Shown piece after piece: positions 1-23,652 of a stretch of DNA of 36,560 nt (the stretch's first letter is position 1; every line of letters begins with the position of its first letter). The DNA comes from a virus (lineage: Duplodnaviria; Caudoviricetes). Below the pieces are notes generated by a model that worked only from the letters and a program-made list of their open reading frames with translations, searched no databases and was not told where the DNA came from. The stretch lies in the IMG/VR virus record IMGVR_UViG_3300020426_000015, positions 1-36,560 of that record; one strand, given 5' to 3'. A program made the translations under genes and the position numbers.

Positions 1-594
1 ATATAAAGATTGTTCTGTTTGTGGAGTACCTAGAAAGGTAATTTTACCGTTAGGTTTTAGTATGGCATCAAATTCTTTTACAGCTTCACTTAACTTGTCT
101 CTCATAGGTTGAGTAAAGCTGTTATTTGGTACTTCCACATCATCAGCAATCACTTCATCTGCTCTACTACCTGCCATCTGTCCAAGAACACCCTGAGATT
201 TAACAGAAGGGGCATGATCAGCAGATGCAGGTCCAACATCAAAACTTATCTTTGAGTTTCTCTGAGAGTCTTCTGGACGCAGTGGAGCTAATATTGGCAT
301 CTCATTGATCAACCTCATGGTAAATGTAGAGAAGTTGTCTGCTCTGTCTTTACTTGCAGAGACAACAAGGAACTTCAGTTGTGGATTCATTCTTAGTTTC
401 CACACGACATAGGTAGAAGTTATCCAACTCTTACCCACCCCTCTAAAAGCCTGTATGATCTTTCTACGAGGTCCATGCTGTAAATACTCAGCAATGTCTA
501 ATTGAACTGGTGTGGGGTCAGGTAGGTTAAGATGCCGCCACGTTATGATTAGAAAGTATCTAAAGTCTTGTAATTTCTCAGGAAGCGGTTGCAT
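1..594 (-). CDS. terL: Terminase large subunit, N-terminal ATPase part (runs off the window start; not in the ORF track)
   Basis: Manual translation from ATG at 594: MQPLPEKLQDFRYFL...IIQAFRGVGKSW (Walker A)...GSRADEVIADDVE (Walker B)...FLGTPQTEQSLY, the T7 gp19 motifs. Open to base 1 (198 codons). Confidence 0.96.
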   Translation of the reverse strand, partial: MQPLPEKLQDFRYFLIITWRHLNLPDPTPVQLDIAEYLQHGPRRKIIQAFRGVGKSWITSTYVVWKLRMNPQLKFLVVSASKDRADNFSTFTMRLINEMPILAPLRPEDSQRNSKISFDVGPASADHAPSVKSQGVLGQMAGSRADEVIADDVEVPNNSFTQPMRDKLSEAVKEFDAILKPNGKITFLGTPQTEQSLY

Positions 595-1306
595 AGATAG
601 GTAATATTGTTTGTTCTGTTTTAAAAATATTATTTTTTATATCTTTGTCGTTGTTTTTTCTTTTGATTTTAAAAATATAAATATGTTTACCTGGTGTATT
701 AATATATTCTGCTTGTTTATTTTTAAGTGCTTCTTTAATTTTTAAAGCAAAAGGTTTAATTATTTTTTTATCATCAACTGATCTTATAGTCTTGTCGTGA
801 TATATTTTGTTTTCAAACTTTATAACTTTACCTTTAGATGTTAATCCTTGATAAATAAAATTACTTGCTTTATATATTGTTCCTTGATGATTATGAAAAG
901 GATCAGCGTAAGATACTATTGTTTTATATTTAGTAAATTTTTTTAAGAATTTTATAGTTTTACCAATAAAATAACTTTCTGTATTTTTTTTAGTTTTATC
1001 AATACAACATAATCTTTTTAATTCAATAACTTCTGATTCCTTAGATCCATATTTTTTCCATGTGTTTGCCATAGATAATGAACCATAAATAATTGAACCA
1101 ATTAATTCATTTTTATAAAACAAACCAAATACCAAAGAAACATTTAAACCGTTTACATTATTTGAATAATGCCATTTTTCAATAAAACTTTTTACTCTTT
1201 GAATACTTACAGGTTCAACTGTAAATTCCGTTACTTTTATATTTTGGCAATCTATATCTTTATTAAATGACAAAGATCCAATACTGGGCTGTATGTAACT
1301 TTGCAT
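578..1306 (-). CDS. mom: Mom-family (GNAT-fold) adenine-modification protein
   Basis: Motifs FIEKWHYS, FGLF...GSIIYG, ELKRL, NTESYFIG, IVSYADPFHNHQGTIYKASNF match Mu Mom-like proteins. Visibly more AT-rich than its neighbours. Confidence 0.8.
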   Translation of the reverse strand: MQSYIQPSIGSLSFNKDIDCQNIKVTEFTVEPVSIQRVKSFIEKWHYSNNVNGLNVSLVFGLFYKNELIGSIIYGSLSMANTWKKYGSKESEVIELKRLCCIDKTKKNTESYFIGKTIKFLKKFTKYKTIVSYADPFHNHQGTIYKASNFIYQGLTSKGKVIKFENKIYHDKTIRSVDDKKIIKPFALKIKEALKNKQAEYINTPGKHIYIFKIKRKNNDKDIKNNIFKTEQTILPIYATAS

Positions 1307-1315
1307 GTTATGAAA

Positions 1316-1543
1316 CTATCTTTCTAAAGCAGGTATTACATCAAGGTCTGGAAGGTTTGACATAAGATCTTCCATAGGACTCTTCTCTGTTGGGATACAT
1401 TCAATGCCATTATCTTTTAACAGTTGTCTTGCTACGTTAAGATCACCAGGTTTTGCTTCTCCACTTTTCACCTTGTCTAACAATTCTTGTATGAGAACTG
1501 TATGAAGGTGTTCTAATAATTCTAATTTATTTGCTTTTTCCAT
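1316..1543 (-). CDS. terS: Terminase small subunit (T7 gp18-like)
   Basis: LEHLH...LLDKVKSGEA...DLNVARQLLKDNGI pattern; 75 aa; upstream of terL. Confidence 0.88.
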   Translation of the reverse strand: MEKANKLELLEHLHTVLIQELLDKVKSGEAKPGDLNVARQLLKDNGIECIPTEKSPMEDLMSNLPDLDVIPALER

Positions 1544-1587
1544 AGTTAAAATGTTCTTGCAACCAATATACCTTGTTTTAGAAATTT

Positions 1588-1815
1588 ATGCCCAAGACAG
1601 CTACAGTCGGACAACGATTCAAAATTGATGATCGTGTCGTAAGAAATCATACGATTGGATACACAGGAGGTAAATATAAAAAGAACATAGGAACAGTTAT
1701 AGAAGCCCTTACAAGAGCTAATAAGCTAGGTGTTAATCAATATTATTATAAAGTTCTTTGGGATGATAGAAGGTCATCTGAACACGCTCAGCATAGTCTT
1801 AAACCTGTCGAGTAA
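1588..1815 (+). CDS. Hypothetical small SH3-like beta-barrel protein
   Basis: FKIDDRV...GTVIE...YYYKVLWDD...SL pattern typical of SH3/Tudor-like phage proteins. Opposite strand to most genes. Confidence 0.65.
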   Translation: MPKTATVGQRFKIDDRVVRNHTIGYTGGKYKKNIGTVIEALTRANKLGVNQYYYKVLWDDRRSSEHAQHSLKPVE

Positions 1816-2103
1816 GGTTTTTTTTGTTTTATATTTTTTCTTTTTAGTAGGTTTTATGTTTTTTGTCCTGTGATGTTCTGAAATTTCATAGCGTATGAGT
1901 TTTGTATTCATTTCTGAAATACGATCTATAGCAGCCATGATAAGAAAATCTTGTAGTTTGTTCTCTTTCATCAGTTCAAGACAGACTTCTCTTACAACAG
2001 CATCAGGCATCTGTTTTATTTCTCTTCTTCTAATTTCAATATCAAGTTCTATTTCAGTTGGTGTTTTACCAATAAGAACTTCATAAAATTCTTGATGATT
2101 CAT
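1774..2103 (-). CDS. Hypothetical helical protein, NblA-like candidate
   Basis: TPTEIELDIEIRRREIKQMPDAVVREVCLELMKEN has the helix-loop-helix spacing of NblA, followed by a basic C-terminal extension. Confidence 0.5.
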   Translation of the reverse strand: MNHQEFYEVLIGKTPTEIELDIEIRRREIKQMPDAVVREVCLELMKENKLQDFLIMAAIDRISEMNTKLIRYEISEHHRTKNIKPTKKKKYKTKKTLLDRFKTMLSVFR

Positions 2104-2153
2104 ACTTGTTTACTAGGTACTTTCCAATTATGTATATGTTTGCTAATTTTGAC

Positions 2154-2204
2154 TTGACTACCTCACACAGTCAATAAGCCCTATTACCTCCCTAATAGGG
2201 CTTT
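2154..2204 (+). ncRNA. Candidate Yfr1-like small RNA (two hairpins)
   Basis: TTGACT-ACCTCACAC-AGTCAA hairpin followed by AAGCCCTATTA-CCTCCC-TAATAGGGCTT. ACTACCTCACAC differs from the cyanobacterial Yfr1 motif ACTCCTCACAC by one inserted A. TG-C-TAATTT extended -10 at 2141-2149. Confidence 0.5.
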
Positions 2205-2218
2205 GCTATATAACTATT

Positions 2219-2623
2219 ATGGAAGAACAAAAAAAGAAAAACCCCATACAAAAAATAAAAGAGACTATTGAAGATAAGGAAGAACAATTAGCTTTTATAT
2301 CAGTGGTAGTCCGTTTAGTTGTAGTGGGCTGGAGTGGTTTTATAGTTTCCTTGAACTACATTACTATTCCTGGTTACAGTAACGAACCAAAAGACATTAC
2401 ATTCCCAGCTTCTCTTCTCACTGGAGCGTTAGCCAGCTTTGGCTTGGAGGGTGCTAAAAAACGTGGTGATGGTACATACAAACCTGATGAAAAACCTCTT
2501 AACAAAAAAGAAGTAGAAGAGTTACTAGCATCACAGTCTGGTGGTTATCAAACCGTTAGAATTGAGACACCGATTAAGATTATTGGTGCAGAAATTGTAG
2601 ACCCCGATTCTCCTAAAAAATGA
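2219..2623 (+). CDS. Two-TM membrane protein (possibly holin-like)
   Basis: Hydrophobic segments LAFISVVVRLVVVGWSGFIVSLNY and ITFPASLLTGALASFG; charged termini; ATGA overlap with the next gene. Confidence 0.75.
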   Translation: MEEQKKKNPIQKIKETIEDKEEQLAFISVVVRLVVVGWSGFIVSLNYITIPGYSNEPKDITFPASLLTGALASFGLEGAKKRGDGTYKPDEKPLNKKEVEELLASQSGGYQTVRIETPIKIIGAEIVDPDSPKK

Positions 2624-3147
2624 AAAAATTCTTACCTTTGATTTTACTGGCATTTCCAACAGCTAGTTTTGCAGACATCACTCATTCAATCCAATCAGTT
2701 GCGTCAGTCTCAACAGTCGCAGCTTCAGCAACAAGTGAGCGTATTGGATCCTCTATAAGTGTAGCTGGCACGAATGTAACACCAAAAGCTAATACAGTAG
2801 CAGGTCAGATAGGTTCTCTTGATTTAGCTGATAATGGAATAGCTAACGGAGTTCCTACTGTTGATTATGATACTAGCTTCAATGTAGTCAACACAGGTGA
2901 TGCTTTTTCGGCAAGCGAGACTTACATCCAAGCTGACGCTGTTCCAAGCTTGCTATCCGCCACAGTTACTAATGGGGCAGTTCCATCCTTACCTCTTTTA
3001 GGCAAGAACACAGTAGTTGCAGGTGGTGACCCTGGTTCTGTTGCTATCACGCTAGATAGTGGACAGGCATTAACTGTAAACCTATCTGATATGGGTGCTG
3101 GTACAACTGCAACGCTCCAATCAACAATCACTCTTGGCTTGGATTGA
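2620..3147 (+). CDS. Secreted Ser/Thr/Ala/Gly/Val-rich beta protein
   Basis: Signal peptide MKKFLPLILLAFPTASFA; mature part nearly devoid of basic residues. Confidence 0.85.
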   Translation: MKKFLPLILLAFPTASFADITHSIQSVASVSTVAASATSERIGSSISVAGTNVTPKANTVAGQIGSLDLADNGIANGVPTVDYDTSFNVVNTGDAFSASETYIQADAVPSLLSATVTNGAVPSLPLLGKNTVVAGGDPGSVAITLDSGQALTVNLSDMGAGTTATLQSTITLGLD

Positions 3148-3572
3148 TGAGATGGCTGTTGCTTTTGTTTATAGCTTTTCATAGTTCGTATGCACAGGCT
3201 ACCACTCCTAGGTTTAGTGCGAATCAGATGCAATCTACAAGCAAAAGTGTTTCTACTATCAATGAAACTATTGTCACTGAAAACTACAGGACAGGTTATT
3301 CATATTCAGTTCAAGGACATAATATTAAAGTCACAGAAGATTCTGTCATATCACCTGATGCCACATATACTACAAGTCAGAATACAGGAAAGGTTAGCTT
3401 TCAATGGGTGACACCAGACCTACCAACAAAACCACAGTGGGAGATAGTAACACCAGGGGATTCGTTCAGTCTGGTAGAAAACTTTCTCGCTCCAGGACTA
3501 GACGCAGTATCTATCATTACAAGAAATCAAACCATAGAAACTGTGCAAGACTCTGTAACGCTATTTCAATAG
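3144..3572 (+). CDS. Secreted Ser/Thr-rich beta protein
   Basis: Signal peptide MRWLLLLFIAFHSSYAQA; start overlaps the previous stop; ends VTLFQ. Confidence 0.85.
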   Translation: MMRWLLLLFIAFHSSYAQATTPRFSANQMQSTSKSVSTINETIVTENYRTGYSYSVQGHNIKVTEDSVISPDATYTTSQNTGKVSFQWVTPDLPTKPQWEIVTPGDSFSLVENFLAPGLDAVSIITRNQTIETVQDSVTLFQ

Positions 3573-4180
3573 CTTTATTATGTTCTACACCTGTACATGC
3601 AAACACCACCATTTCATCGCCCAGTTCCAGTAGTCAAGGCACAGTTATAAACAATGGCTATCAAACGATAAATGGAAACTTCCCAACTCATAGATTTTCA
3701 AACGGAATACAATGTCAGTTACCAACATTGGCTTTCACTCCTTTTGTTACTAAAGGGGAGGGTTTTAATACCCCAAGAATTACTACATCAAGAACCAACA
3801 TATATGATACTGCAACGGACAGCGATACAGGCCAGTTGCTTAACCCAGGGAAAATTCTATATGTCGCAGAACAGGAAAGAATAGATCAGACGAACCACAA
3901 CTTATCGTATGGAGCGACTATAAGCTTACAGGTTCCATTAGGTAAAAGGTTTAACAATGAATGTTTGAGGGCTGCACAAGCTTACAGAAAGACACAAGAG
4001 TTTATGTTAGAGGCAAAGCGTTTAGAGGTTAATCTCAATCGTGCCAAAGTTTGTGGAGCTATGTTGAGGGAAGGTATTAAGTTTGTAGGAGATGATGCTA
4101 TATCTTGTAGAAATATTGTTCTTACTACAATTCCAGATCAGATATTACCTCACACACACGAAATAAAGACAAAAAAATAA
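3404..4180 (+). CDS. Probable secreted Cys-containing envelope protein; true start uncertain
   Basis: Signal-like AISIALLCSTPVHA at about 3560-3601; amphipathic strand LSYGATISLQVPLG; four Cys in the mature part. No ATG/GTG/TTG close to the signal sequence. Confidence 0.75.
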   Translation: MGDTRPTNKTTVGDSNTRGFVQSGRKLSRSRTRRSIYHYKKSNHRNCARLCNAISIALLCSTPVHANTTISSPSSSSQGTVINNGYQTINGNFPTHRFSNGIQCQLPTLAFTPFVTKGEGFNTPRITTSRTNIYDTATDSDTGQLLNPGKILYVAEQERIDQTNHNLSYGATISLQVPLGKRFNNECLRAAQAYRKTQEFMLEAKRLEVNLNRAKVCGAMLREGIKFVGDDAISCRNIVLTTIPDQILPHTHEIKTKK

Positions 4181-4337
4181 GCAATCAAACGATCCAAACT
4201 TGCAGAGGTTTATTAAAAACATGTCGTGTGTGTTAGCACACTTTCTAGTAAGGGAAGATTGCTTAAAAACAACTGTCGACTAGGGTTTTTAATCCTAACG
4301 TCTTCTCATCATGGAGCAACCCATGAAACAGTTGTGT
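4171..4337 (-). ncRNA. Candidate structured non-coding RNA (two branched domains, U7 tail)
   Basis: Stems ACAACTGT/ACAGTTGT (4269-4276/4328-4335), TCATGG/CCATGA, GAC-TAGG/CCTA-GTC, TAAGCAATC/GATTGCTTA (4178-4186/4257-4265), GTGTG/CACAC; near-consensus promoter directly upstream. Confidence 0.6.
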
Positions 4338-4342
4338 TCTTT

Positions 4343-4370
4343 ATTATATACAAAATATCAACTAAGTCAA
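4343..4370 (-). promoter_or_regulatory. Host sigma70-type promoter
   Basis: TTGACT-N16-TATAAT on the minus strand, just downstream of a terminator. Confidence 0.75.
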
Positions 4371-4375
4371 TTCAT

Positions 4376-4410
4376 AAAAAAACCACCTAATAACCCAGAA
4401 AAAGGTGGTT
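4376..4410 (-). terminator. Intrinsic terminator
   Basis: AACCACCT...AGGTGGTT stem followed by a T-run on the minus strand, downstream of the 228-aa ORF. Confidence 0.65.
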
Positions 4411-4466
4411 GATGTGATTTATTTTTGAATCAAGCTTATCTTAACTAATAATATTTTATGGGCAAG

Positions 4467-5153
4467 TCAACGGCCCTTGTTATTCTTGCCCTTATTTAAT
4501 TTAGCAATTATTTTCTTAAATATTGTTTTACTTGCAGATTTCACGATAGGTAAAAGAAGTGGAGTACTGGCAGCAATGAAAGACACAGCAACAACATTAA
4601 GAGCAGCAGCAGGCGTTGGTAATACCGATTTAAGGAAAGTGACTTCTTCAAGGATTGGTATGCAATCATATCCATTATCTGCTCTTTTATATTCTTTTAT
4701 ACGTTCTGTTCTTAAATCTGATGTAAAACTTCCAACTGGTAATACTCTTGATAAGTCAGGACATGGTGGTGGTTCCTGTTCATCCTTATCGTCATCCTTT
4801 GGTGGCATAAATGCACCCTTCAGTTTTATGCCTGATGAATATTTTGATGAGCTTTCTGTTTCTATTGTGTCATTTGGATCGTAAACAATAGATCTGATCT
4901 TCTGTCTTTCTGCTTTTGGTGCAGTAGTTTTCTCTTCTTCAACAGGTGCAGTGGCAGTTATCGGTCCTTGAGGACAGGTTGCATATTGCTTACGGTTATA
5001 AAAAACTATAGTTGGATTTTGAGTTATCTTCAGATCTCTATCAACTAAATCACAGGCAGGTTGCACACCTGTTAAAACAAATTCAGTGACAAAAGGAACA
5101 GAAGGTATATCAACAGTTGGTATCGTTATCTTCGGTACTTTTATACTTGGCAC
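4467..5153 (-). CDS. Pro-rich, Cys-containing protein with C-terminal membrane anchor
   Basis: GTG start overlapping the upstream stop; IKVPKITIPTVDIP repeats; PPPCP; hydrophobic AAALNVVAVSFIAASTPLLLPIV then a Lys-rich tail. Confidence 0.8.
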   Translation of the reverse strand: MPSIKVPKITIPTVDIPSVPFVTEFVLTGVQPACDLVDRDLKITQNPTIVFYNRKQYATCPQGPITATAPVEEEKTTAPKAERQKIRSIVYDPNDTIETESSSKYSSGIKLKGAFMPPKDDDKDEQEPPPCPDLSRVLPVGSFTSDLRTERIKEYKRADNGYDCIPILEEVTFLKSVLPTPAAALNVVAVSFIAASTPLLLPIVKSASKTIFKKIIAKLNKGKNNKGR

Positions 5154-5368
5154 TAAAACTTAGGTATAGATATACCAGTGCTGCTAGGCATTGCTTTATC
5201 TAAAGCTTTTGGCATGAGTCCTGATACTTTACCCATAACCTTTTCCATCATCATCTTTTCAAACTGTGGGCTGGTTAAGTAACGATATCCTGCATATGCT
5301 CCACCTAAAGTTGAAATGCTAATAACAAACGATACGATAGATAAGATAGAAGAAATTTTATTTAACAT
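5153..5368 (-). CDS. Single-TM membrane protein (71 aa; start revised to 5368)
   Basis: MLNKISSILSIVSFVISISTLGGAYAGYRYL then an amphipathic Met-rich helix. Confidence 0.75.
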   Translation of the reverse strand: MLNKISSILSIVSFVISISTLGGAYAGYRYLTSPQFEKMMMEKVMGKVSGLMPKALDKAMPSSTGISIPKF

Positions 5369-5498
5369 GATTAGAGATGCATTTTTAAAGGCATTAGTGC
5401 CTGTTACCATTATAACCTTTGTGTCTGTAATGGCTATTGCACCTCTATATGTCACGTTAAGTATGATGACTAGAAGCTATACTTCAAGCCAACCTTAG
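5367..5498 (+). CDS. Small single-TM peptide (43 aa)
   Basis: MIRDAFLKALVPVTIITFVSVMAIAPLYVTLSMMTR; fills the gap between two minus-strand genes; ATG overlaps the ATG of the divergent gene. Confidence 0.55.
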   Translation: MIRDAFLKALVPVTIITFVSVMAIAPLYVTLSMMTRSYTSSQP

Positions 5499-5829
5499 TT
5501 CCGTATGTATTAACGTCATCTGTTACAACAGCGAACTCACCATAAGCATTTAACTTATCGCTAAGATCATATCCGCCACCAACTTTACCAGAAAGCTTAG
5601 TGTCAGAATCTCCTACAGAAGGATTGATGAAACTAGGACCACCTTGTAGGTAGAACGATCCATTCTCTCCAACAGTATTTTCGTAACCGATATGGAGGTC
5701 TATAACATTACCACCCCAGTCGGAGCCTACGTTTGTTTGATTAAATTCCGGGTTTAAATAGAAACCTGCATAAGCTGGAACGCTAAGTGCTACAGATGCA
5801 GCAGATAGTGTTAAAACTTTCTTTAGCAT
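5470..5829 (-). CDS. Small outer-membrane beta-barrel (porin/OMP-like) protein
   Basis: Signal peptide ending PAYA; alternating Gly/aromatic strands; C-terminal YGTKVGLKYSF is a BAM-type beta-signal ending in Phe. Confidence 0.85.
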   Translation of the reverse strand: MLKKVLTLSAASVALSVPAYAGFYLNPEFNQTNVGSDWGGNVIDLHIGYENTVGENGSFYLQGGPSFINPSVGDSDTKLSGKVGGGYDLSDKLNAYGEFAVVTDDVNTYGTKVGLKYSF

Positions 5830-5851
5830 AATTTTTAAAAATTAAAGTCTT

Positions 5852-5879
5852 ATATTAAGTGACCTCTAATTATTTACAA
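5852..5879 (-). promoter_or_regulatory. Possible sigma70-type promoter for the OMP gene
   Basis: TTGTAA-N16-TAATAT upstream of the ATG at 5829. Confidence 0.45.
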
Positions 5880-5909
5880 CTAGCAGTGTATAACTAAAAT
5901 ATTTGTCCT

Positions 5910-5945
5910 TTAGCTACTAGGTTCTGTAAGCCAAGCAATGTTATA
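5910..5945 (-). pseudogene. Remnant C-terminus of a tail-fibre assembly chaperone gene
   Basis: Startless frame YNIAWLTEPSS-stop resembles the (P)YNITWPTEPS ending of phage tail assembly chaperones. Confidence 0.5.
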
Positions 5946-6369
5946 CGTATTCTGACATGTCAGTATTTGGGGTTATAAATACAGGTTCTGATACGTCAAT
6001 TTCATTACTCTCAGACTCAAGATCACCTTCTTGTTTTATAATAGTGTTAACTTTAAAAAATTGCCCATAAATTTTTCTATATTCATTACTTTTTATCTTT
6101 AATTCTGTTGCACTAACTGGAATTACATTTTCGCCACTGTATTTACTAAAACAATTATAAGTTTTGTTTGAATCTGGATTAAGTATTTGCTCATCATTTA
6201 ATAATGTTGGATTAATTAACCATCCTGTTTCGTTTGAACCAGTTATTTCTTTAACAATTATCCAGTCAGTAGGGTTGTTTTGCATGCGAACAGAAAGTGC
6301 TGTTGCTGCATTTTGAGCTTCATCTTCTGAATTATATTCTTTGCCTACATAGTAATATTTGATTGACAT
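5941..6369 (-). CDS. Hypothetical acidic protein in the tail-fibre cassette
   Basis: 142-aa ORF coupled by TAATG to the adhesin gene; AT-rich. Confidence 0.75.
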   Translation of the reverse strand: MSIKYYYVGKEYNSEDEAQNAATALSVRMQNNPTDWIIVKEITGSNETGWLINPTLLNDEQILNPDSNKTYNCFSKYSGENVIPVSATELKIKSNEYRKIYGQFFKVNTIIKQEGDLESESNEIDVSEPVFITPNTDMSEYV

Positions 6370-7280
6370 TATGTACCTCCATAAATTGTGCCATTGTTAG
6401 TAAGAGTATATGTTACGCCACTATCATCTATTGCTTTGCCCCCATCAGTGGGGGTAGTGTCACCATGAGTAGGAACTATACCCCCAGAAGCACCATAACC
6501 ACCACCACCAGCACCAGCAGGCAAGTGACTACCACCACCCCCAGAGGGATTTGCTCCAGCATTATTATTGATTCCTCCTGTTCCACCTTGACCAGCATAT
6601 GAGCCAGTAATGGTTGGATTATTGGTTTGACTACCTGTAATCTTTCTCCCACCGCCACCTCCACCACGACCGCTACCACCAGAGAAAATAGCTCCAGATG
6701 AAGCACCATTTCCACCATGATCACCTCCAAGACCTCCACTTGTCGCACCTTGATCCCCTGCATTACCAATATCACCTCCAGAACCACCACTTGAAGAAAA
6801 AAGATATCCATCGCCACCTTCTCCTCCACCAGCACCGCCGCCTCCACCACCGGCTTGAGGGATTAATGAAGAGGTATATTTACCAGCATTTCCACCACCA
6901 CCACCGCCAAAAATATTACCACCCGATTCATTAGTTATAACAACACCAGAAACACCACTGTTTATTTTTATTGCAGGGCCACCGTTATAACCAGCACGTA
7001 TACTATTATTAGTACTACCTTCACCACCATTACCGCCACGACCCATAATATTACCTTGATTAATAATAGTGCAACTAATATCTACAGTTAAAGCTGGAAT
7101 ATTAGTATCATCTGACCATACATAAAGACCTGAAGGAATTATTAATGTTTCTCCAGCAGAAATAAAGTTTGATATTGTTATTTCTTGTTGTTGTGCATTT
7201 CCATTTACGTTTCCAGCATTAGGTAAGATAACTGCCCCGCCTGAAGAAGAAGTTGCTAATAACATTTGTTGAATAGTCAT
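6369..7280 (-). CDS. Glycine-rich receptor-binding adhesin (T-even gp38-like)
   Basis: GRGGNGG, GGPAIK, IFGGGGGG, repeated polyglycine runs, GGKAI...NNGTIYG; directly after the tail fibre. Confidence 0.8.
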   Translation of the reverse strand: MTIQQMLLATSSSGGAVILPNAGNVNGNAQQQEITISNFISAGETLIIPSGLYVWSDDTNIPALTVDISCTIINQGNIMGRGGNGGEGSTNNSIRAGYNGGPAIKINSGVSGVVITNESGGNIFGGGGGGNAGKYTSSLIPQAGGGGGGAGGGEGGDGYLFSSSGGSGGDIGNAGDQGATSGGLGGDHGGNGASSGAIFSGGSGRGGGGGGRKITGSQTNNPTITGSYAGQGGTGGINNNAGANPSGGGGSHLPAGAGGGGYGASGGIVPTHGDTTPTDGGKAIDDSGVTYTLTNNGTIYGGT

Positions 7281-9217
7281 TATTCTAATCCTGCTCCAGC
7301 ACCATAAACAACTGTAGCTGAAACAAACAAAAAGGTTGCAACTCCTCTAGCTTTTAAAGTTAACGAACTTTTAGCACTTGTATCACTTGCAAGATATGTT
7401 GTTACTGCACTGCAAGTAATTGTTTGGTCAGATGCACTGTCATTAATAATTGTTATAGCATCACCAGCAGCAAATTCACTGGCTGGAATTGTTACACCAC
7501 CAGTTGTGATACTTATATGTTTTCCTGCATCAGCAGCGACAAGTGAATAGGCTGAAGTTTGAGAGTTTTGAACAATACTTCTTAAATTACCTTTTGAATC
7601 TTGTACTAAAGTTGATTCTAAAACTCCAGTACTAGAGTCAAAAGTTAAATTTGAACCAGACTTAGGTGCTAGATTACCTGTTGCCTCTGTAGAAAATAAA
7701 GGAAAACAAGTTGTATCACTTGATTCATCCGCAACTGTCACAGTAGTTGCTATTGCTGCTGTACCAGTAGTATCTTGGTTTAATGTGTTAACTGAAAATT
7801 CATTCGTACCAGAAAGACTTAAGCCAGCACCAGCAGTATATGTTGTATTGGTATCAGTTGTTTGATCTACCCAATCAAGACCACCTGAGCCATCAGTTTT
7901 CAAAACTTGATTAGCATTTCCATCTGTATTAGGCAAAGTAAGGGTGTAACTTGCACCAGCAGAGTGCGGTGGTGAAGCAATTTGTACTCCGTGATTATTA
8001 TTTGAGCAATTAAGCTTTATTGTCCCAACAGTTCCATTAGTTGTACCATCACCTTTAATTTCAACAACACCAGCACCATTAGGATTTAAAATTATATTTC
8101 CGTCAGTTGTGCTTGTATTAATTTCATTGCTTTGTACATCTAAGTTACCACCTAGTTGTGGTGTACTATCTTGATCTAAGTCTGTATTTACATCAACAAA
8201 CTCTAGACCATCTGCTGTTGAATTAACTTTAACTGTTTTACCTGCTGCTCCTGTGTAGTTTGTTGGAGAATCAGTAAGCCCTGTAAAGGTACTAGAACCT
8301 CCACCTCCACCTGTATCATCAGCAATAACAAATTTTGCACTTGATGCTTGATATTTAAGAATTTTATTATCAGCTACACCTGTTAGATCGACATCATTTA
8401 ATACTCCTACTGAATTAGATGAGGTTACATCTGCTCCTGTGGCTATACCAGAAAGTTTTGTTTTTTCTGCATCGGTGAAGGCGTTAGTATTTGCTTCTCC
8501 TTCATACGCTGTTTTTATTTCTGCTCCAGTTTGATCAGCAGTAGCATTGCTTTCTATTCCGTCTAATTTTGTTTTATCTGCTGCAGATTGATAGCCAGCA
8601 GCAGAAGTTGTAGCATTAGCAATATTTAATTTAGATTGTGATATTGCTGCACTTGCATTTATATCAGCATTAACAATAGTTCCATCAGTAATCATTGTTG
8701 AACTTACAGTACCTGTATCTCCTGATGTAATAACTGTTCCAGTTGTATTAGGAAGAGTAATAGTATTATCTTGAGTAGGATCTGTTACTGCTAATGAAGT
8801 TTGATTATTATCTTCAGTAGTTCCTTCAAAAGATAAATTACCTTTTATAGTTTTAGTACCATCTCTTTTAACATAATCATCAACTAGTTCTTGTATTGCA
8901 TGTAAGACCTGATCATTATTTTGATTTAAATCTAATGCTTTTAAAACACTTGCATCACTAAAAGAAATCCTTGCAGTATTTACTTTAGTATTTCTTTGAA
9001 AGACAATATTAGCTCCATTTGCAGGTTCGTTACCAGAGGTAAATGAGATATTAAATTTACTATCAAAAGTGTAATGAGTTGTCTCAGTTTTCAATACACC
9101 ATCAACTAATACTTCAACATCAGTTCTATTTAAATAATCAAAACTAATAGTAAAAGGACCAGCAGTACCATTACCGACTACTGTATTAGAAGTAGAAGAC
9201 CCAGAATTAGAAGCCAT
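7280..9217 (-). CDS. Tail fibre protein (T7 gp17-like N-terminal anchor)
   Basis: GNGTAGPFTISFDYL...DVEVLVDG...FQRNT...FSDASVLKALDLNQNNDQVLHAIQE anchor domain; mosaic fibre modules (DKTKLDGIE, DSTPQLGGNLD). Confidence 0.92.
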   Translation of the reverse strand: MASNSGSSTSNTVVGNGTAGPFTISFDYLNRTDVEVLVDGVLKTETTHYTFDSKFNISFTSGNEPANGANIVFQRNTKVNTARISFSDASVLKALDLNQNNDQVLHAIQELVDDYVKRDGTKTIKGNLSFEGTTEDNNQTSLAVTDPTQDNTITLPNTTGTVITSGDTGTVSSTMITDGTIVNADINASAAISQSKLNIANATTSAAGYQSAADKTKLDGIESNATADQTGAEIKTAYEGEANTNAFTDAEKTKLSGIATGADVTSSNSVGVLNDVDLTGVADNKILKYQASSAKFVIADDTGGGGGSSTFTGLTDSPTNYTGAAGKTVKVNSTADGLEFVDVNTDLDQDSTPQLGGNLDVQSNEINTSTTDGNIILNPNGAGVVEIKGDGTTNGTVGTIKLNCSNNNHGVQIASPPHSAGASYTLTLPNTDGNANQVLKTDGSGGLDWVDQTTDTNTTYTAGAGLSLSGTNEFSVNTLNQDTTGTAAIATTVTVADESSDTTCFPLFSTEATGNLAPKSGSNLTFDSSTGVLESTLVQDSKGNLRSIVQNSQTSAYSLVAADAGKHISITTGGVTIPASEFAAGDAITIINDSASDQTITCSAVTTYLASDTSAKSSLTLKARGVATFLFVSATVVYGAGAGLE

Positions 9218-9219
9218 GA

Positions 9220-9327
9220 TTAATTATAAGATATGAATTGAATTAGTTTTATTATATCTTTATTAGTTTTGTTAACAAAAATATTACCAGTATGGTTTGT
9301 GAAAGATGCAGCAGTGTTAGTAGCCAT
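9220..9327 (-). pseudogene. Truncated duplicate tail-fibre start (35 codons)
   Basis: MATNTAASFTNHTGN parallels MASNSGSSTSNTVVGN of the intact gene, then degenerates into AT-rich sequence. Both starts share TAATCATGGCT(A/T)CTAA. Confidence 0.7.
9251..9278 (-). promoter_or_regulatory. Possible sigma70-type promoter for the tail-fibre cassette
   Basis: TTGTTA-N16-TATAAT, 33 nt upstream of the tail-fibre ATG. Confidence 0.5.
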
Positions 9328-9329
9328 GA

Positions 9330-12300
9330 TTAGTTAAAAGCTCCAGATTCAGTTTTTTCTTGGGCTTCCTTTCCTTTTTTATAATACTCTAAAATTCGTG
9401 TTTGTTTTTTTAGCCTTGCTTTGTTCTTCACTTCTGAACTGTCTGGTAAGTTTTCAATAAACTCATCAGTTGCTTCTCTTATATACAGTCTATTTAAAGA
9501 CATAATACCTTTAATCCCTCTGCTACTATCGCCAAACCAAATCATATCAACTGCCATAGGAACATCTAAAGGGCTGTCTGCTTCTTCTATAATTGCCATA
9601 TTTTCCTTGTAGTGTGGTGTTTTCATGTATTGTCTAAGGGCTTGATCTAATGTCAATCCATCAATCTGAAATTCATTAACTTGTTTTTGTAAATCATCAT
9701 AAAGTGGGCCTGTAAGTTCAATAGGATCTGATTGTAAATTTATATCTCTATCTCTATCAGAATGAGTGACCTTATCGCTTGGTGGAGGTAGAGTTCTTCC
9801 TAGTTTTTTCTGTAAAGTAAGAACGGGTTCGTTGACTGTTTCACTAGATTCAACCCAATTAAATAAATCAAATCCTCTTCTGTGAGGACGTTTTATAAAA
9901 TTATTAGTTATGTGTTCTCTTTGAGGAGGTAAATGATCACCGTAAAAAGGTATTACTCTTTCTGCTTCATTAAACATCCTTGCAAGCCCAAGAAATTCTT
10001 TATCACCTGGCCTTACTGTCTTATCTCTTTTAACGACATATTTTTCAATTTCAGAATCTGGCACTCCTTTCATCTGTAATAAATCTTTTGGTATTTGCTT
10101 GAGATTAGCTAAAAGGCCACTTCCTGGAATGTTGCTAGCTCCCTGACGAGCAAACCATTTTTCTGCTTTACCAGGATTTAACCAAAGATTTGCAGCATCT
10201 CCTAAACCTTGAGTAAAGGTTCTATCAGTAAAGTTGCGACCAAAAGCTACAAGAAAAGCTGACATCATATCGGTATATTCACCATCTGTTAAATATTCCT
10301 GTACTTGGTGCATATCAACTAACCAACCGACAAAGCTAGATAAAGGATCTAATCTTTTATATGAGTGGTAGACATATACATATTCACCATCTTCACCTAT
10401 TTTGGGTTCTCCATTTTCATCAAATTGTAAAAATCCTGCTGAATAAGGTCTCCAACCTGTAGTCCAATCCCTCCACCACTGTTCTCTTCCTTCTGCTGTA
10501 GTTGTATTTACCCCACCACCAGTTAATACAACTCTAGGTGGATTACCTCTTTTTGTTCTTTCTTTAACTACATCTTGAGTTTCAACTTTTACAAAATTTT
10601 GTCCATGAATAAGACTAATAAAACCACCTGTAGCAAGAATACTCATGGTTAATTGACCCATAGTTTCTGCTTGTACTAAAGGATCATCACTTTGCAGGTC
10701 ATTTCTAAATTCTCTCATCATCAGATTAATACCAGGGGTATCTCTAAATCCCTCTTTAATAATATTTACAGGAGACCGAGTAAACATTTGAAATCTTCTA
10801 ACAATAGGAATTTTTGCTAGTTCTTGAAAACCTTTACCTAAAGGTCCAACGACATCACCATCAGTTCTTATATCTTGTGTAAAGGTATTTCTTTTTCCTA
10901 GTTCTAAGGCTGACTTTAAGATTCTTGCTTCTACATCTTCAGTAATATTTTTACCTGTTTTTTTAATAATTGATTCCCAAACAATATTAGATTTTTCGAC
11001 TGTAAATTTTGATAACTCTTCGCCTGTCAAACCCAACTTCATTCCTTCTAAAAAGGCACTACTGACAGTACCTCCTCTAATGTTGCCTGCTTGAAATAGA
11101 GCATCTGTAGCAGTCATAGCCCGACCAGCACCTCTAGCAAAAGTACCAATTGGATTCCAAAGTTGCCCTAACCATTTGTGAGGGCCTGTTAAATCTGTTG
11201 TATCTACATAAGTTGCAAACTGCTCAGGATAATCAATTTTTCTTGAACCAGGATTTAATATATTTTCTTGTTTTTGCCATGATTCGCCCATCGCTTTTAA
11301 AGCATAATTTAAGTCACTGTGCATATAGATAAAGTGTAATAACGCAGCTTTATATCTTTCTGGTTGCATTACATTTCTTGGATCTAACGCAAGTTTTAAT
11401 GGTGTTTTGTAAGCCATTATTACGTTCGACAAAATGTTTATTTCGTGAATAGTAGGTGCATATAACACACCGTTAATAAGAATTTCATTAAGAGGTCTTA
11501 GGTAAGTATTAGGGCTAAGTAATCTATCTAATAATCCATACTCAAATAGTTTCTTTATCTTTTGTGGATTTCCTTTAGCACGATCAATCGTATATAAAAA
11601 CTTATTAAATTTAGTAAAATCACCAGTTTGTTTTGCTTCTGCAAGAGTGTCTCTAATGTTTTTTTGTAGATCTTTTATTTTTACGCTTTGATAGTTAGCT
11701 GCAATATCAGCATCACCTCTTGTTCTTTCTTGTAATTTCTTTCTTTCTGGTATAGATAATTTTAAATATTCTTCTTTTGATATAGAAAAGTTTTCTAAGT
11801 TATAAGCTAAAGAACCTAACCCTCTACCTGCTTCACTTCTTAAAGGAATACCAAGTCTTAACCATTCATCGTAATCATCAAAATGTTTTATTAACAGTTC
11901 TGCTCCTTCTTCTATCTGCTGCATACTATCTAGAGGAACATCAAGATTTGTAAGATCTAATAGAGATTTAGTTTGATTAGATATAGATCCACTTGTTAGT
12001 TTTACATAACCACTAAGAGCTACATTAAGACTATCTGAAGGAAGGATTTTATATATTTGCTGCATTAGCTTTGCCAACTCTTTCAACTCGTCAGAGTTAG
12101 CCATAAGGTCAACAGCTTCATCAGTTGTATCACTCATTGTTTTAACTCTATAGAAGCCACTAGCATCCTCTTCAAGCTTCATACCTCTAAGAACTTTCTC
12201 TAAAAAACGTGCTTGTCTAGGGGTGCTTGCTAGTTGATTAAGATTAACTTGACCAGGAAGTATGTTTTCATCACCTAAATCTTGTGTTTTTTTCTTTGCC

Positions 12301-14095: not shown

Positions 14096-16654
14096 TTAAT
14101 TAGTTTTGGGTAAAAAATCTTTGTACGTTCCGTCCGTATAAGTAGACCAATCATCAAACCTTTCTTTTGGTTTTCTTCTACTGTAAAGTATAAAGGCAGC
14201 TTTGGCATTGGTTAGTGGGTCATATAGTTCTTGTGGGCTTTTAATATTAAATAGTGGGAAGCGTTCTGCTTGGAACTCCTTAATTACATTTATTTGCCAA
14301 AGACCTAAACTAAATTCATTTTCTTTATTTGGATCTGTACCAGAAGCAACAGTATCTATTTGAGCATCACCTTTAGATTCTGCTAAAGCTATAGCTGCCA
14401 TTATTCTTGCGTCTTCAGGGGGGAAACCTACTTCCATTGCAAGTCTGTAAAGAGAATCATAGCTAAAAGGTTTAGTAACATCTATCTCTTCAAGAACACT
14501 TCTATTCTTTAAATCTTCTTTTGGTACTACAGCATCACCAACTGTATTCACTAATCTGGTAATAGTTGGCATGATTAGTTCTTGACCTATATTAATTGCA
14601 TCACTAGCCAATCCATTAACTTCTTTGATTTTTTCTACGGTTGTATTGTAAAGCTGTGATAATCCAAATAACGTATCTCCTTTTCTTACTTGGACCTTAA
14701 TTGGTTCATCATCAGTATCTTCATTCATCATACCTCCACCAGGACCATCACCTCTTCTTCCTCCTCCAAAGAATTTTTTAAAGAAGTTTCCTCCTGTTAA
14801 TCCAAAATTACCTGATTCTACTTCTTTATCTAATTGAATTTTTCCCTCTGGTGTAATAGTAAATTTATTTGTATTTAGTAAATTTAATGCTTGTTCTGCT
14901 GTTAATTTTTTTTCTTCAGCAAACTGCAAGATCTGATCCATTGATGCACTATTAGAAACCCCTTGACTACCTTTATTTTGATTTTTGGTAGTGCTTTGAA
15001 TATCTTTTAATGCAGCATCTTCTAAATCTCTTAACTTTATGAAGTAATCTTCTTGAGATCTTTTTAGAAACTGACCAGGATTATCAGGGTCAATTGTACG
15101 ATACAAATAATCTATTAAATCTCTATTAATGCTTTTTGAATATTTCTGGTACTTATCAGCTTTGTCAGGTTCTTTTTCAAGATTAAAAGTAAAGTAACCA
15201 TCTAGTGTTTGTTGTCCGCCTGCTGCAACACCTAGTCTTTTTAATACTTCTCTAACATCTGTACGATAATTTTTATAAGGATCAAATCCAGAAGTTTTAT
15301 CAAAAATTAAACCTCTTAACATTTCTAAATTTTGTTCGTCTTCTTTCGTAATAGTTGTACCTAATGAATTTCTTATATTTATAAATTTAGTAGCAGCAGC
15401 ATCCATGGTAATTTGTCGATTTAGTATTTGATCCATTAAGTCGTTTACAACTTTGGTTCTATCTTCTTCATAAATTTCAATTTTCTGTAAAATATCTGGT
15501 TTTCTGTGAGGGTATTTTTTTATTAAAGCATTAAATTTCGGTATGTTTTCTATAGAGCTTAGTCCATATTCCAAGGCAAAATCTAAGATTTCTTTATCTT
15601 CCTTTGCTTTTTCTATATCCACTCCTCTTTTCTTATCTTGCTCATATCTTTGATATAAACTTTTTTTTAAATTAAACATATCTGTTCCATATTTTGTATT
15701 TTTGTCTAATGTCGATTGACTAAAAGTTCCATCTTTTTGCTGAAGCATTGGACCTATTTTTATTCCACCACCCATTTCTATTACTTCAAAAGCATCATCC
15801 AAAGCACTTTCATAATCATTAGGTACTGCTTCTAAAGCACTCTCATAAACACTCAGAGAAATACTTTTTAAAGAAGTAATAATACTGTCGTTAAATTTAG
15901 TTTTTTTATCAGCAGGGATTCCAAGAGTAACTTGGCTTTCTACTTGTTTTTGAATAATATTAAGTGCTTCTTCTTTACTTCCTTTTAACCATAATGGTAA
16001 AGCGTTCCATATTGCATCATTAGTTTGTGATTTAGCTCTATTAAACCTAAATTCATTATTTGCTTTTATATGTTCTTGGACTATGGCTTCGGTAGCTTTT
16101 TGCTGATATGGATAAAAGTAATTTGCTAAATGCTTGTTATTTAACCCTTGAGTTTTTAATTCTGTTAAAGATGATATTTCACCTAAGAACTCTTGCATTT
16201 GTGGAGAGTCTATTGAAAAATGCGATATTGGTTTTGTAATAGTTTTGCCTTCACGATTTGTAAATTCAAAAACTTTATTATTATAAATATTTTCATAATC
16301 TGAATTAAGGGTAAGACCAATATGTTCTGCTTGTCTTTTTTCAAATTCATCTTGAGTGAATATACTTCCACCAATTAATTGATTAGTAGCATCATCACCA
16401 AATTTATTTCGATGTTCTTTTGTTATCTGCTTAAAACCTTTCTTGGCAATTTCCATTGTTATATCAGCACGTTGGTCTTCAATATTTTCTTCTATTTTTT
16501 GTCCAATAAATCTCTGAAGATTAGGATTTACAGCAGCCAGTGTCTCAGCTAAGGACTCAATACCAGTTTTAGGTTGAACACTGGGAGGTCGTACAAAAGT
16601 ATCTACAGGTCTTGCAGAGGATTGAAAAGCTGTGCTTTGAACACTAGATGTCAT
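14096..16654 (-). CDS. Internal virion protein, gp15 position, with LysM and lytic transglycosylase-like domains
   Basis: N-terminal ARPVDTFV...LAETLAAVNPNL; LysM VRKGDTLFGLSQLYNTTVEKIKEVNGL...INIGQELIMP; lysozyme-like AIALAES...GLWQIN...LYDPLTNAKAA...WSTY. Confidence 0.9.
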   Translation of the reverse strand: MTSSVQSTAFQSSARPVDTFVRPPSVQPKTGIESLAETLAAVNPNLQRFIGQKIEENIEDQRADITMEIAKKGFKQITKEHRNKFGDDATNQLIGGSIFTQDEFEKRQAEHIGLTLNSDYENIYNNKVFEFTNREGKTITKPISHFSIDSPQMQEFLGEISSLTELKTQGLNNKHLANYFYPYQQKATEAIVQEHIKANNEFRFNRAKSQTNDAIWNALPLWLKGSKEEALNIIQKQVESQVTLGIPADKKTKFNDSIITSLKSISLSVYESALEAVPNDYESALDDAFEVIEMGGGIKIGPMLQQKDGTFSQSTLDKNTKYGTDMFNLKKSLYQRYEQDKKRGVDIEKAKEDKEILDFALEYGLSSIENIPKFNALIKKYPHRKPDILQKIEIYEEDRTKVVNDLMDQILNRQITMDAAATKFINIRNSLGTTITKEDEQNLEMLRGLIFDKTSGFDPYKNYRTDVREVLKRLGVAAGGQQTLDGYFTFNLEKEPDKADKYQKYSKSINRDLIDYLYRTIDPDNPGQFLKRSQEDYFIKLRDLEDAALKDIQSTTKNQNKGSQGVSNSASMDQILQFAEEKKLTAEQALNLLNTNKFTITPEGKIQLDKEVESGNFGLTGGNFFKKFFGGGRRGDGPGGGMMNEDTDDEPIKVQVRKGDTLFGLSQLYNTTVEKIKEVNGLASDAINIGQELIMPTITRLVNTVGDAVVPKEDLKNRSVLEEIDVTKPFSYDSLYRLAMEVGFPPEDARIMAAIALAESKGDAQIDTVASGTDPNKENEFSLGLWQINVIKEFQAERFPLFNIKSPQELYDPLTNAKAAFILYSRRKPKERFDDWSTYTDGTYKDFLPKTN

Positions 16655-23137: not shown

Positions 23138-23392
23138 TTATGCAATCTTTAAACTCTTTCTTCCTTTTCTCCTTTTGTGATTGTAAGAAATTCTTTTACT
23201 GCTGGTCTTCTCTGCTTTAAATCTTGCCTTCTCTTTACTACTCATTTCACCTGTAGTCTTTGGTGTTTTACTACTGATTCTTTTTGATGGTCTGCAAGCA
23301 GGGTAGCCACGTTGATCTCCCTTTTGTCTTCCACAGGGTTTACCTGTTTTAACATCTACCCACTTCTCCTTGAACCATCTGGTAAGACTCAT
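23138..23392 (-). CDS. Small basic protein (84 aa)
   Basis: LTRWFKEKWVDVKTGKPCGR...YPACRPSKRISSKTPKT. Confidence 0.85.
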   Translation of the reverse strand: MSLTRWFKEKWVDVKTGKPCGRQKGDQRGYPACRPSKRISSKTPKTTGEMSSKEKARFKAEKTSSKRISYNHKRRKGRKSLKIA

Positions 23393-23541
23393 TTTCCTAC
23401 TTGTTTTTGTGCAGCAGTATGTGCAGCTTTAAATGTTTTACCTTCACGCATAAGCTTCTTCATAAGATTCATGTGCTTAGGTGTGTGATGAACTGAATGT
23501 GCCTTCAGCTTTTTCATCTGGCTAAGATTAAGCTTTGCCAT
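23389..23541 (-). CDS. Small basic His/Met-rich protein (50 aa)
   Basis: Manual translation MAKLNLSQMKKLKAHSVHHTPKHMNLMKKLMREGKTFKAAHTAAQKQVGK; ATGA overlap with the next gene. Confidence 0.8.
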   Translation of the reverse strand: MAKLNLSQMKKLKAHSVHHTPKHMNLMKKLMREGKTFKAAHTAAQKQVGK

Positions 23542-23650
23542 TTTTCTTTTTACCTTTCTTTTTGGATTGACGAAGGATCATAAGATCTTCTCTGGTGATT
23601 TTGCCATCACCAGTTTTGTCTAGTTGTTTTTGTTTTTTAGATAAAGGCAT
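23528..23650 (-). CDS. Small basic protein with EF-hand-like loop (40 aa)
   Basis: MPLSKKQKQLDKTGDGKITREDLMILRQSKKKGKKKNGKA. Confidence 0.75.
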   Translation of the reverse strand: MPLSKKQKQLDKTGDGKITREDLMILRQSKKKGKKKNGKA

Positions 23651-23652
23651 GA

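Follow-up and report, generated by a model that had tools for sequence, protein, structure and literature searches.

A widespread cyanophage module of predicted envelope proteins, seen in a T7-like marine cyanopodovirus genome, and its possible role in lysis

The DNA analyzed here, the 36,560-nucleotide IMG/VR virus record IMGVR_UViG_3300020426_000015 (hereafter the window), is a circularly permuted whole genome of 36.5 kb from a T7-like marine cyanopodovirus, and it carries, between terS and the tail-fibre block, a strand-switching island with genes for predicted envelope proteins, named C to I below. The permutation splits terL into an N-terminal part at 1–594 and an RNaseH-like C-terminal part at 35824–36513, both on the minus strand. 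The genome also encodes an RNA polymerase, a primase-helicase, endonuclease I, an exonuclease, the portal, scaffold, capsid, tail tube and nozzle proteins, gp14/gp15/gp16-like internal proteins, and a T7-type tail fibre; no DNA polymerase gene was found in a Pfam scan of its open reading frames (ORFs). The closest named relative of the window is the Prochlorococcus phage P-SCSP2, a member of the MPP-C clade, which PMC9860041 describes as cyanopodoviruses without a DNA polymerase gene, and the phage of the window is an MPP-C cyanopodovirus of this kind.

An ORF map of the window showed that the large ORFs all lie on the minus strand, with the sole exception of 1588–4180. The coding strand switches four times between terS (1316–1543) and the tail-fibre block, giving A (1588–1815, plus), B (1774–2103, minus), C-D-E-F (2219–4180, plus) and G-H-I (4467–5829, minus), in agreement with an earlier note on this DNA that had described an island of alternating strands in a single-strand genome. 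Stop and start codons overlap as ATGA between C and D and as TGATG between D and E, and H and G share TAGTG. The genes from C to I are the following.

C: 2219–2623, plus strand; membrane protein of 134 residues; DUF6450, phrog_2714/721, T4-GC 218; Syn9 gp161.
D: 2620–3147, plus strand; predicted secreted beta protein of 175 residues, rich in Gly/Ser/Thr/Ala; phrog_564, T4-GC 237; Syn9 gp167.
E: 3147–3572, plus strand; predicted secreted beta protein of 141 residues; DUF6322, phrog_650, T4-GC 236; Syn9 gp166.
F: 3404–4180, plus strand; predicted exported protein of 258 residues; phrog_848/1755, T4-GC 235; Syn9 gp165.
G: 4467–5153, minus strand; protein of 228 residues with a GTG start that has one base in common with the H stop; phrog_570, T4-GC 234; Syn9 gp164.
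H: 5153–5368, minus strand; peptide of about 71 residues with one transmembrane helix; phrog_568, T4-GC 414; Syn9 gp162.
I: 5470–5829, minus strand; small beta-barrel of 119 residues, like an outer membrane protein (OMP); Phage_OMP PF24653 (formerly DUF680, IPR056410, PhCOG173, 'gp222'), phrog_417.

C-D-E-F facing H-G (2219–5455) is a conserved six-gene envelope module made of two convergent operons. The assignments to the envelope were based on Kyte-Doolittle hydropathy, reading of the N-termini, alignments, and the TMHMM and SignalP notes on the homologues in phage P-SSP7. Where eight envelope ORFs had been counted in the earlier note, seven (C to I) turned out to be conserved, and the second of its two single-helix peptides matched no conserved ORF.

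Far from being confined to this genome, the island is a widespread cyanophage module whose families have been catalogued (as DUFs, PHROGs and T4-GCs) without a function. Each of C to I falls in a large phage protein family, as seen from PHROG matches. In a tblastn search of 50,697 phage records, 407 contained a relative of F, 403 one of E and 460 one of I; almost all of these records are named cyanophage, Synechococcus phage or Prochlorococcus phage, with the remaining 11 per search labeled 'Marine virus' or uncultured. Gene order was analyzed in 160 IMG/VR loci, 80 fetched with F of the window and 80 with F of the cyanomyovirus S-ShM2, using family hidden Markov models (HMMs) built by iteration over all ORFs of these loci; since all loci were selected through F, the counts show what accompanies F and not the reverse. 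Two orders prevailed: C, D, E and F on the plus strand with G and H on the minus strand in 39 loci, plus 9 with I on the minus strand, and D, E and F on the plus strand with G, H and C on the minus strand in 37 loci, plus others with I. The remaining patterns were mostly shorter subsets of one or the other order, as expected from truncation at contig ends, and a few departed from them (duplicated H, C before H, F before D/E, and I alone). Among the loci with at least 2.5 kb upstream and at least 3 kb downstream of F, all six families were present, in a fixed order, in 19/19 of the podovirus type; in those of the myovirus type, D, E and G were each present in 29/29, H in 27/29 and C in 26/29, and C, E, G and H occurred together in 24/29. 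A lack of co-occurrence in relatives had been set beforehand as one result that would refute the proposal, and the genes proved to travel together in these loci as well as in S-ShM2, MED4-117 and P-SSP7.

The named phages illustrate how the module is carried in different genomes. In S-ShM2, which is T4-like, D-E-F faces G and C within the replication block, between regA/gp62 and hsp20/gp43. MED4-117, which is siphovirus-like (lambda J-type tail fibre, exonuclease VIII, excisionase), carries C-D-E-F facing G-H, and P-SCSP2 has the reduced form C-E-F; the module identities in these three phages were confirmed by PHROG assignment. P-SSP7 (MPP-B) carries a colinear G'-C-E-F between the tail-fibre genes and terS, with family-HMM scores of 1.6e-4 for G', 3.5e-30 for C (PSSP7_043), 9.4e-11 for E and 1.3e-35 for F. 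Sullivan et al. 2010 list T4-GC 218, 234, 235 and 237 in 15/16 cyanomyoviruses and 236 in 12/16, and 218 and 234–237 are absent from 10 non-cyano T4-like phages. The description of these families as one module, the dual coding of E and F, and the spread across three phage types appear to be new, the families themselves being known as hypothetical clusters; no description as one module, or of the spread across myovirus-, podovirus- and siphovirus-like cyanophages, was found in the full-text literature, and subscription papers may contain more.

Beyond the phage collections, the F profile matched 538 representative proteins at E ≤ 0.001 among 1.84 billion, and the 10 longest F relatives contained 0 Pfam families, hence no informative fusions. 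In 185,579 species genomes, it yielded 10 loci, each with other module genes around the match, and no cellular homologue of F. A host-derived gene set was considered and rejected, because every match in the genome collection lay in a phage context; judged from these searches, the module appears to be found only in phages. A 188-kb contig in a Nonlabens isolate assembly (L175) carried the whole module (1–10603) flanked by homologues of gp43, hsp20, regA, gp62 and dam, and looks like a T4-like cyanomyovirus genome within a flavobacterial isolate assembly. The module was also seen in several metagenome-assembled genomes labeled Bacteroidetes, Euryarchaeota and Gammaproteobacteria, where the copies are probably mis-binned phage contigs.

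The products of C, G and H were predicted to be anchored in the inner membrane. C matched Pfam DUF6450 with 77.3 bits (gathering cut-off 25) and consists of an acidic N-tail, a strong transmembrane helix at residues 25–47, a weaker second segment with a conserved DPTFIASVFTG-like sequence, and a basic stretch. The earlier note had called it a protein with two transmembrane helices, which holds for the strong helix and is less clear for the second segment, the P-SSP7 homologue being annotated with 2 TMHMM helices. In size and build, C appears holin-like: the generic holin build (small, at least one transmembrane helix, a charged hydrophilic end) is fitted by C and partly by H, with no holin family match for either in Pfam, PHROGs or NCBIfam. 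The alignment of G showed an acidic Pro-rich N-domain with 4 invariant Cys, followed by a C-terminal transmembrane helix and a strongly basic tail. The median charge was −5.5 for the N-domain and +11.5 for the tail, so that by the positive-inside rule G is predicted to lie with its N-terminus outside and its C-terminus inside. H matched phrog_568 (3.3e-09 over residues 32–99; database label 'plasmid stability'). Its longest ORF is 100 residues and reaches 5455; the conserved start in the alignment is M30, which gives 70–71 residues and is most likely the real start. In Syn9, an additional protein with one transmembrane helix and a glycine-zipper-like C-terminal end, gp163, lies between the H and G homologues (supplement of PMC3037559); no counterpart was present in the window, and the myovirus form of the module may have a seventh member.

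The remaining products were predicted to be exported. D matched phrog_564 (9.6e-25), and its S-RIM8 homologue is annotated as 'OMP1 protein'. E, whose ATG at 3147 overlaps the D stop (a TTG lies at 3144), matched Pfam DUF6322 with 92.3 bits (gathering cut-off 30.6), and D reached only 15.5 bits, below that cut-off. The two are paralogs by hhalign (97.3% probability, E 2.2e-11). In the alignments, both N-termini were of the Sec type and ended in AxA-like sites. The invariant residues of E are E40, W87, R126 and F140. F consists of a basic leader of about 50 residues, a short hydrophobic stretch, an AxA-like site (VHA|N) and a mature part in which 4 Cys are invariant and a PHxH motif is C-terminal. 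We take F to be exported by means of a signal whose basic n-region is exceptionally long and whose h-region is short, ahead of the AxA-like site; alternatively, F could keep its signal as an uncleaved anchor and have a cytoplasmic tail. The AlphaFold model of E (predicted local distance difference test, pLDDT, 64; predicted template modeling score, pTM, 0.33) has strands of more than 20 residues, and that of F (pLDDT 65.5, pTM 0.27) has long beta hairpins, strands of more than 20 residues and a 40-residue helix. Because such long-hairpin shapes would not be stable alone, we infer from the models that E and F might form oligomers.

I matched PF24653 with 120.2 bits over its whole length (cut-off 27), carries a signal peptide and ends in ...GLKYSF. 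It was adjacent to the module in only 6/19 podovirus-type and 7/29 myovirus-type loci, and in 9515-10a and S-RIM8 its homologue lies beside psbA, away from the D–F genes. I is an accessory neighbour and not a fixed member of the module. DUF680/PhCOG173 is described as common in cyanomyoviruses, Enav et al. relate that a response to phosphate limitation or stress had been suggested for it, and loss-of-function DUF680 mutants were selected in S-TIM4 on one host (bioRxiv 10.1101/261479). The Phage_OMP family has been modeled as a six-stranded half-barrel that would dimerise (bioRxiv 10.64898/2026.10.24.761521).

E and F are encoded in overlapping frames. In the window, F starts at 3404 inside E, 169 nt before the E stop and in the -1 frame, and its hydrophobic stretch starts right after that stop. 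The same frame offset (2) was found in 78/78 and 77/77 loci (155/155 from IMG/VR), with an overlap of 139–178 nt in all 155 and an ATG start codon for F in 153. Upstream of the E stop, the F frame was open for at least 48 codons (median 58–60), against a median of 5–9 for the third frame. As a control, synonymous codons were redrawn from the usage of the family itself while the protein sequence of E was kept constant; the F frame stayed open in only 1.0% (podovirus-type) and 7.4% (myovirus-type) of redraws, a rarity showing that selection holds the F frame open within E. The encoded leader of F is strongly basic, with a median of 13–14 R/K/H against 2–3 D/E. A programmed -1 frameshift from E into F was rejected, since F begins with a conserved ATG of its own and no canonical slippery heptamer was seen close to the E stop. 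The E/F region is a clean overlapping gene pair maintained across very distant phage lineages. No description of this dual coding was found in the full-text literature, and subscription papers and transcriptome supplements may hold data.

The sequences upstream of the operons were then compared. The T4 late promoter (TATAAATA) has TAAATA as its core, and a cyanophage variant of this late promoter is known. In myovirus-type loci, TAAATA preceded the leading gene of each operon at a distance of at most 60 nt, in 54/62 cases for D and 49/58 for C, compared with 58/690 control ORFs, 8/73 for E, and 1/65, 1/74 and 1/77 for the internal genes H, G and F. This enrichment predicts that both operons might be transcribed late. 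The I-H-G operon would end at the following feature, which is read from the sequence.

4376–4409, minus strand; intrinsic-terminator-like hairpin with the stem ACCACCT/AGGTGGT followed by a T run, and a loop of more than 8 bases.

The segment 4374–4466 was conserved in at least 10 related loci. A scan for sigma-70 promoters found 16 sites against 17.8 expected, that is, no signal. One near-consensus sigma-70-type promoter (TTGACT-16-TATAAT, 11/12) lies at 4370–4343 (minus strand) between the convergent operons and is directed at a terminator-like hairpin at 4241–4226; an RNA of about 120 nt in 4215–4370 (minus strand), partly antisense to the 3' end of F, could be produced from it. The spacer between F and G is a mosaic, common to relatives only in pieces, with a fold z-score of −1.8 against shuffles. 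The spacer between the divergent B and C was conserved in 5 related loci (72–87% identity), has a fold z-score of −2.2, and contains an 11-bp perfect hairpin (AAGCCCTATTA / TAATAGGGCTT) at 2176–2203 without a T run, which may be a processing or protein-binding site. Two RNAs had been proposed in the island; a dedicated scan found 0 tRNA or tmRNA, Rfam gave 0 matches in 1–8000 at E ≤ 1, and the spacers fold only mildly better than shuffles, so this proposal was not supported. Contigs from marine RNA libraries matched parts of C, D, E, the F end, the spacer, G, H and I at 90–99%; these matches were not used as evidence of expression, since they carry no strand information and DNA carry-over is possible, and gaps in this coverage are not informative.

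The surroundings of the module include two further ORFs of the strand-switching region and several other genes of the window.

A: 1588–1815, plus strand; ORF of 75 residues without a transmembrane helix or signal peptide; in the strand-switching region, outside the module.
B: 1774–2103, minus strand; ORF of 109 residues with a basic C-terminal end and no transmembrane helix; upstream of terS, outside the module.

Neither a transmembrane helix nor a signal peptide was found in A or B by the Kyte-Doolittle scan and reading of the N-termini. By tblastn, A matched 14/85 related loci and is present in some MPP-C relatives, and B likewise matched 14/85, with P-SCSP2 among the sharers. Between terS and terL lies a Mom-like DNA-modification gene (578–1306, minus strand; PF25680 7e-38, phrog_1384 8e-61), which had a tblastn match in 1/85 related loci; terS directly adjoins terL in P-SCSP2, and the gene looks like a recent insertion in the packaging operon. 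Directly after the tail fibre gene, K (6369–7280, minus strand) encodes 303 residues with long glycine runs (GGGGG, GGxGG), is coupled by start and stop codons to the tail fibre gene and to J (5941–6369), and had a weak match to phrog_10745 as its sole family match; it is probably a fibre accessory or a distal fibre part. At 23138–23799 (minus strand), DUF5872 is split over two ORFs, 23653–23799 (profile positions 1–39) and 23138–23392 (55–112), with a 50-residue ORF (23389–23541) between them, and this locus may be an interrupted or split gene.

We next considered which genes of the window could serve in lysis or defence. The T7 transglycosylase sits in gp16. In the window, the sole muralytic domain is a LysM + SLT_3 (lysozyme-like) pair at the end of a gp15-like internal virion protein of 852 residues (14096–16654, minus strand). 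When 30 more ORFs of the genome were compared with Pfam, no holin, endolysin or spanin family was found, and with none in C to I either (Pfam and the other collections), the lack of a recognisable canonical endolysin, holin or Rz/Rz1 that had been noticed at first sight was confirmed. Known defence and exclusion families gave 0 matches to C to I at E ≤ 0.1 (PADLOC-DB), and the ESM Atlas returned only the own families of the module proteins. Our literature and database searches yielded no lysis gene of Prochlorococcus or Synechococcus phages. Kongari et al. 2018 (PMC6139136) counted 20 phages of Prochlorococcus or Synechococcus among 91 spanin-less phages, including P-SSP7, S-ShM2 and Syn9.

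The initial proposal of an uncharacterised trans-envelope system stood in so far as the export signals and the co-occurrence of the genes support an envelope system; its assignment to lysis is tentative, and that to exclusion more doubtful. We favor, as quite possible and still short of probable, the reading of the module as a non-canonical lysis set that acts late in infection and opens the host envelope. C, being small, membrane-bound and charged at its ends, would be a holin-like timer; the inner-membrane side would consist of H and of G, which would be held by its C-terminal inner-membrane anchor and extend a Pro-rich, disulfide-bearing N-domain into the periplasm; D, E and F, as polar beta proteins with long hairpins, would make up the periplasmic and outer-membrane side and destabilise or perforate the outer membrane; and the OMP-like I might be an optional helper. 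This lysis reading is preferred because of the late-promoter motif, the T7-holin-like position in P-SSP7 and in this genome relative to the T7 map, the lack of any other lysis gene, and the survey of spanin-less phages. In a more specific form, which we consider unlikely, D, E and F would build a large beta-hairpin ring or pore in the outer membrane, tethered via G and H to the inner membrane and gated by C, as a machine invented by phages and unrelated to holins, endolysins and spanins. If true, such a machine would be a new class of envelope-breaching apparatus, shared by all tail types, and would explain about 20 spanin-less cyanophages. Prochlorococcus and Synechococcus are the most abundant phototrophs of the ocean, and lysis by phages is one of the main ways in which they die and release carbon; the module gives concrete candidates for lysis genes that are common to myovirus-, podovirus- and siphovirus-like cyanophages, predicted to be exported to the envelope, and apparently late.

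Several observations weigh against a lysis function. No holin, spanin, endolysin, defence or structural family was matched by C to I (Pfam, PHROGs, NCBIfam, PADLOC), no muralytic domain was found in them, and the alignments of F and G contained no invariant acid/His set typical of a muralytic enzyme. Searches of PDB sequences with the profiles of D, E, F and G had no match below E 0.05, and Foldseek against the PDB gave no significant match (best E 0.088 for F and 0.065 for E, TM-scores ≤ 0.30). The low confidence of the E and F models makes an oligomeric beta assembly something that we infer from them. The timing argument is a count of motifs. G has a 175-residue N-domain and no signal peptide to account for its export. 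The hydrophobic stretch of E ends in an AxA-like site and E is predicted to be almost all beta; with this cleavable signal and beta-rich body it differs from an i-spanin, which has an uncleaved N-terminal transmembrane helix and a periplasmic coiled coil. F as a lipoprotein was rejected, because the Cys in its signal region is not conserved and the four invariant Cys are all in the mature part. In the podovirus-type loci, the wobble entropy of E was 1.204 inside the overlap and 1.201 outside, and this equal variability means that the F leader is kept open and basic and that its sequence itself is not conserved; in the myovirus-type loci the values were 1.084 and 1.318, with all three codon positions lower inside. 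Finally, no module gene was matched in the right arm of Syn5 (MPP-A; 30000–46214), which shows that cyanophages can lyse without the module and that it is not indispensable for every cyanophage.

The rival that comes closest is superinfection exclusion or surface remodeling, in which envelope components would be masked or altered by the exported proteins, or DNA entry blocked, and infected cells or their debris would thereby be kept from taking up more phages, in the manner of T4 Imm and Sp or lambda Lom; we hold this to be a somewhat doubtful possibility. T4 Imm is a small inner-membrane protein and Sp a secreted periplasmic one, the same builds as those of C and of D and E, and both T4 genes are expressed before the late period. 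Exclusion genes are usually early, whereas both myovirus operons carry the late-promoter-like motif and the genes lie in the late block beside the packaging genes in P-SSP7 and the window. The T4 r genes of superinfection and lysis inhibition, as well as imm and sp, are missing from cyanomyoviruses according to PMC2984593, phage OMPs are discussed as possible receptor blockers in 10.64898/2026.10.24.761521, and the DUF680 loss-of-function mutants of S-TIM4 (bioRxiv 10.1101/261479) show this gene to be dispensable and dependent on the host, all of which would suit exclusion. Against it, phages that differ in their tails, and presumably in their receptors, all keep these six genes, as would be unusual if the masking were specific to a receptor, and neither PADLOC nor Pfam gave a match to exclusion families. 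If the module did block superinfection, few genes of this kind would be as complex or as widely shared as this exclusion system.

Two further explanations fit the data less well. An auxiliary conduit for nutrients or solutes in the outer membrane and periplasm, with I as a small porin-like dimer, appears improbable to us: the suggested response of DUF680/PhCOG173 to phosphate limitation (bioRxiv 10.1101/261479) and the phosphate-acquisition contexts of the OMP family (10.64898/2026.10.24.761521) concern only I, which is not a fixed module member. The ring and pore formers among the non-significant fold neighbours of E and F would also suit a conduit; auxiliary metabolic genes, however, are normally host-derived, whereas no cellular homologues of F were found in the species genomes, and late timing and a position beside the packaging genes are unfit for a metabolic helper. 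That the proteins are virion or assembly proteins, for example fibre accessories, is very improbable in our view, in spite of the position beside the tail fibre in podoviruses, the fibre-like Gly/Ser/Thr-rich composition of D and E, and the annotated structural proteins among the Syn5 genes between tail fibre and terL. Virions of tailed phages are put together in the cytoplasm, and D, E, F and I carry Sec-type signal peptides; these export signals and the periplasmic-type cysteines argue that the proteins are not virion parts. Moreover, the myovirus module lies in the replication block and not among structural genes, no structural family was matched (Pfam, PHROGs), and the proteomic-data cell is empty for T4-GC 218 and 234–237 in Sullivan et al. 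2010. Membership in known virion structural families, which had been set beforehand as a refuting result, thus did not hold.

Compared with known systems, I is a full-length and indistinguishable member of the Phage_OMP family, and what is new is that it heads the H-G operon in some MPP-C phages. The ring and pore formers (FlgH of the flagellar L-ring, pore states of beta-pore-forming toxins, and podovirus tail knobs) were the top Foldseek rows for E and F, and resemble the E and F models in having 20-residue hairpins that are stable only in an oligomer; all these rows were non-significant (E 0.065 to >1, TM ≤ 0.30) and are a lead, with no assignment of a fold. T4 Imm/Sp share with the module a phage-encoded small inner-membrane protein and secreted periplasmic proteins, and differ in having no sequence match to it, two genes instead of six, and expression before the late period, where the module has a late-promoter-like motif. 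The T7 holin gene 17.5 lies between the tail fibre and terS, and C in P-SSP7 comes right after the tail-fibre genes, as on the T7 map. Like the small holins (T7 gp17.5; class II with two transmembrane helices), C belongs to a size range of about 80–134 residues with one strong and one weaker hydrophobic helix and charged ends; unlike them, it is a DUF6450 protein without a holin family match, and it heads the operon of the other strand in myoviruses. A recognisable muralytic domain, as in an endolysin, was found in none of C to I (Pfam, PHROGs, NCBIfam).

The spanins offer further parallels. G resembles the unimolecular spanin T1 gp11 in its C-terminal transmembrane anchor and its beta- and Pro-rich N-domain of periplasmic size, whereas it lacks a lipoprotein signal or signal peptide (no N-terminal hydrophobic or lipobox signal was found), is about 100 residues longer, and has four invariant Cys and a long basic cytoplasmic tail. 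H has the N-terminal transmembrane helix of an i-spanin with only about 45 periplasmic residues behind it. F differs from an o-spanin in lacking a conserved lipobox cysteine, as the Cys near its hydrophobic stretch is not conserved, and the E/F overlap encodes a basic leader and not a signal sequence, with no similarity to two-component spanins in sequence or fold. In its gene arrangement, however, E/F resembles two-component spanins such as lambda Rz/Rz1 and T7 gp18.5/gp18.7: both are envelope pairs whose genes overlap in different frames, the second gene beginning within the first (as F does within E in 155/155 IMG/VR loci and in the window), both share the feature of conserved periplasmic cysteines and, in T7-like phages, a place in the late region close to the packaging genes, and both would be needed only in hosts with an outer membrane.

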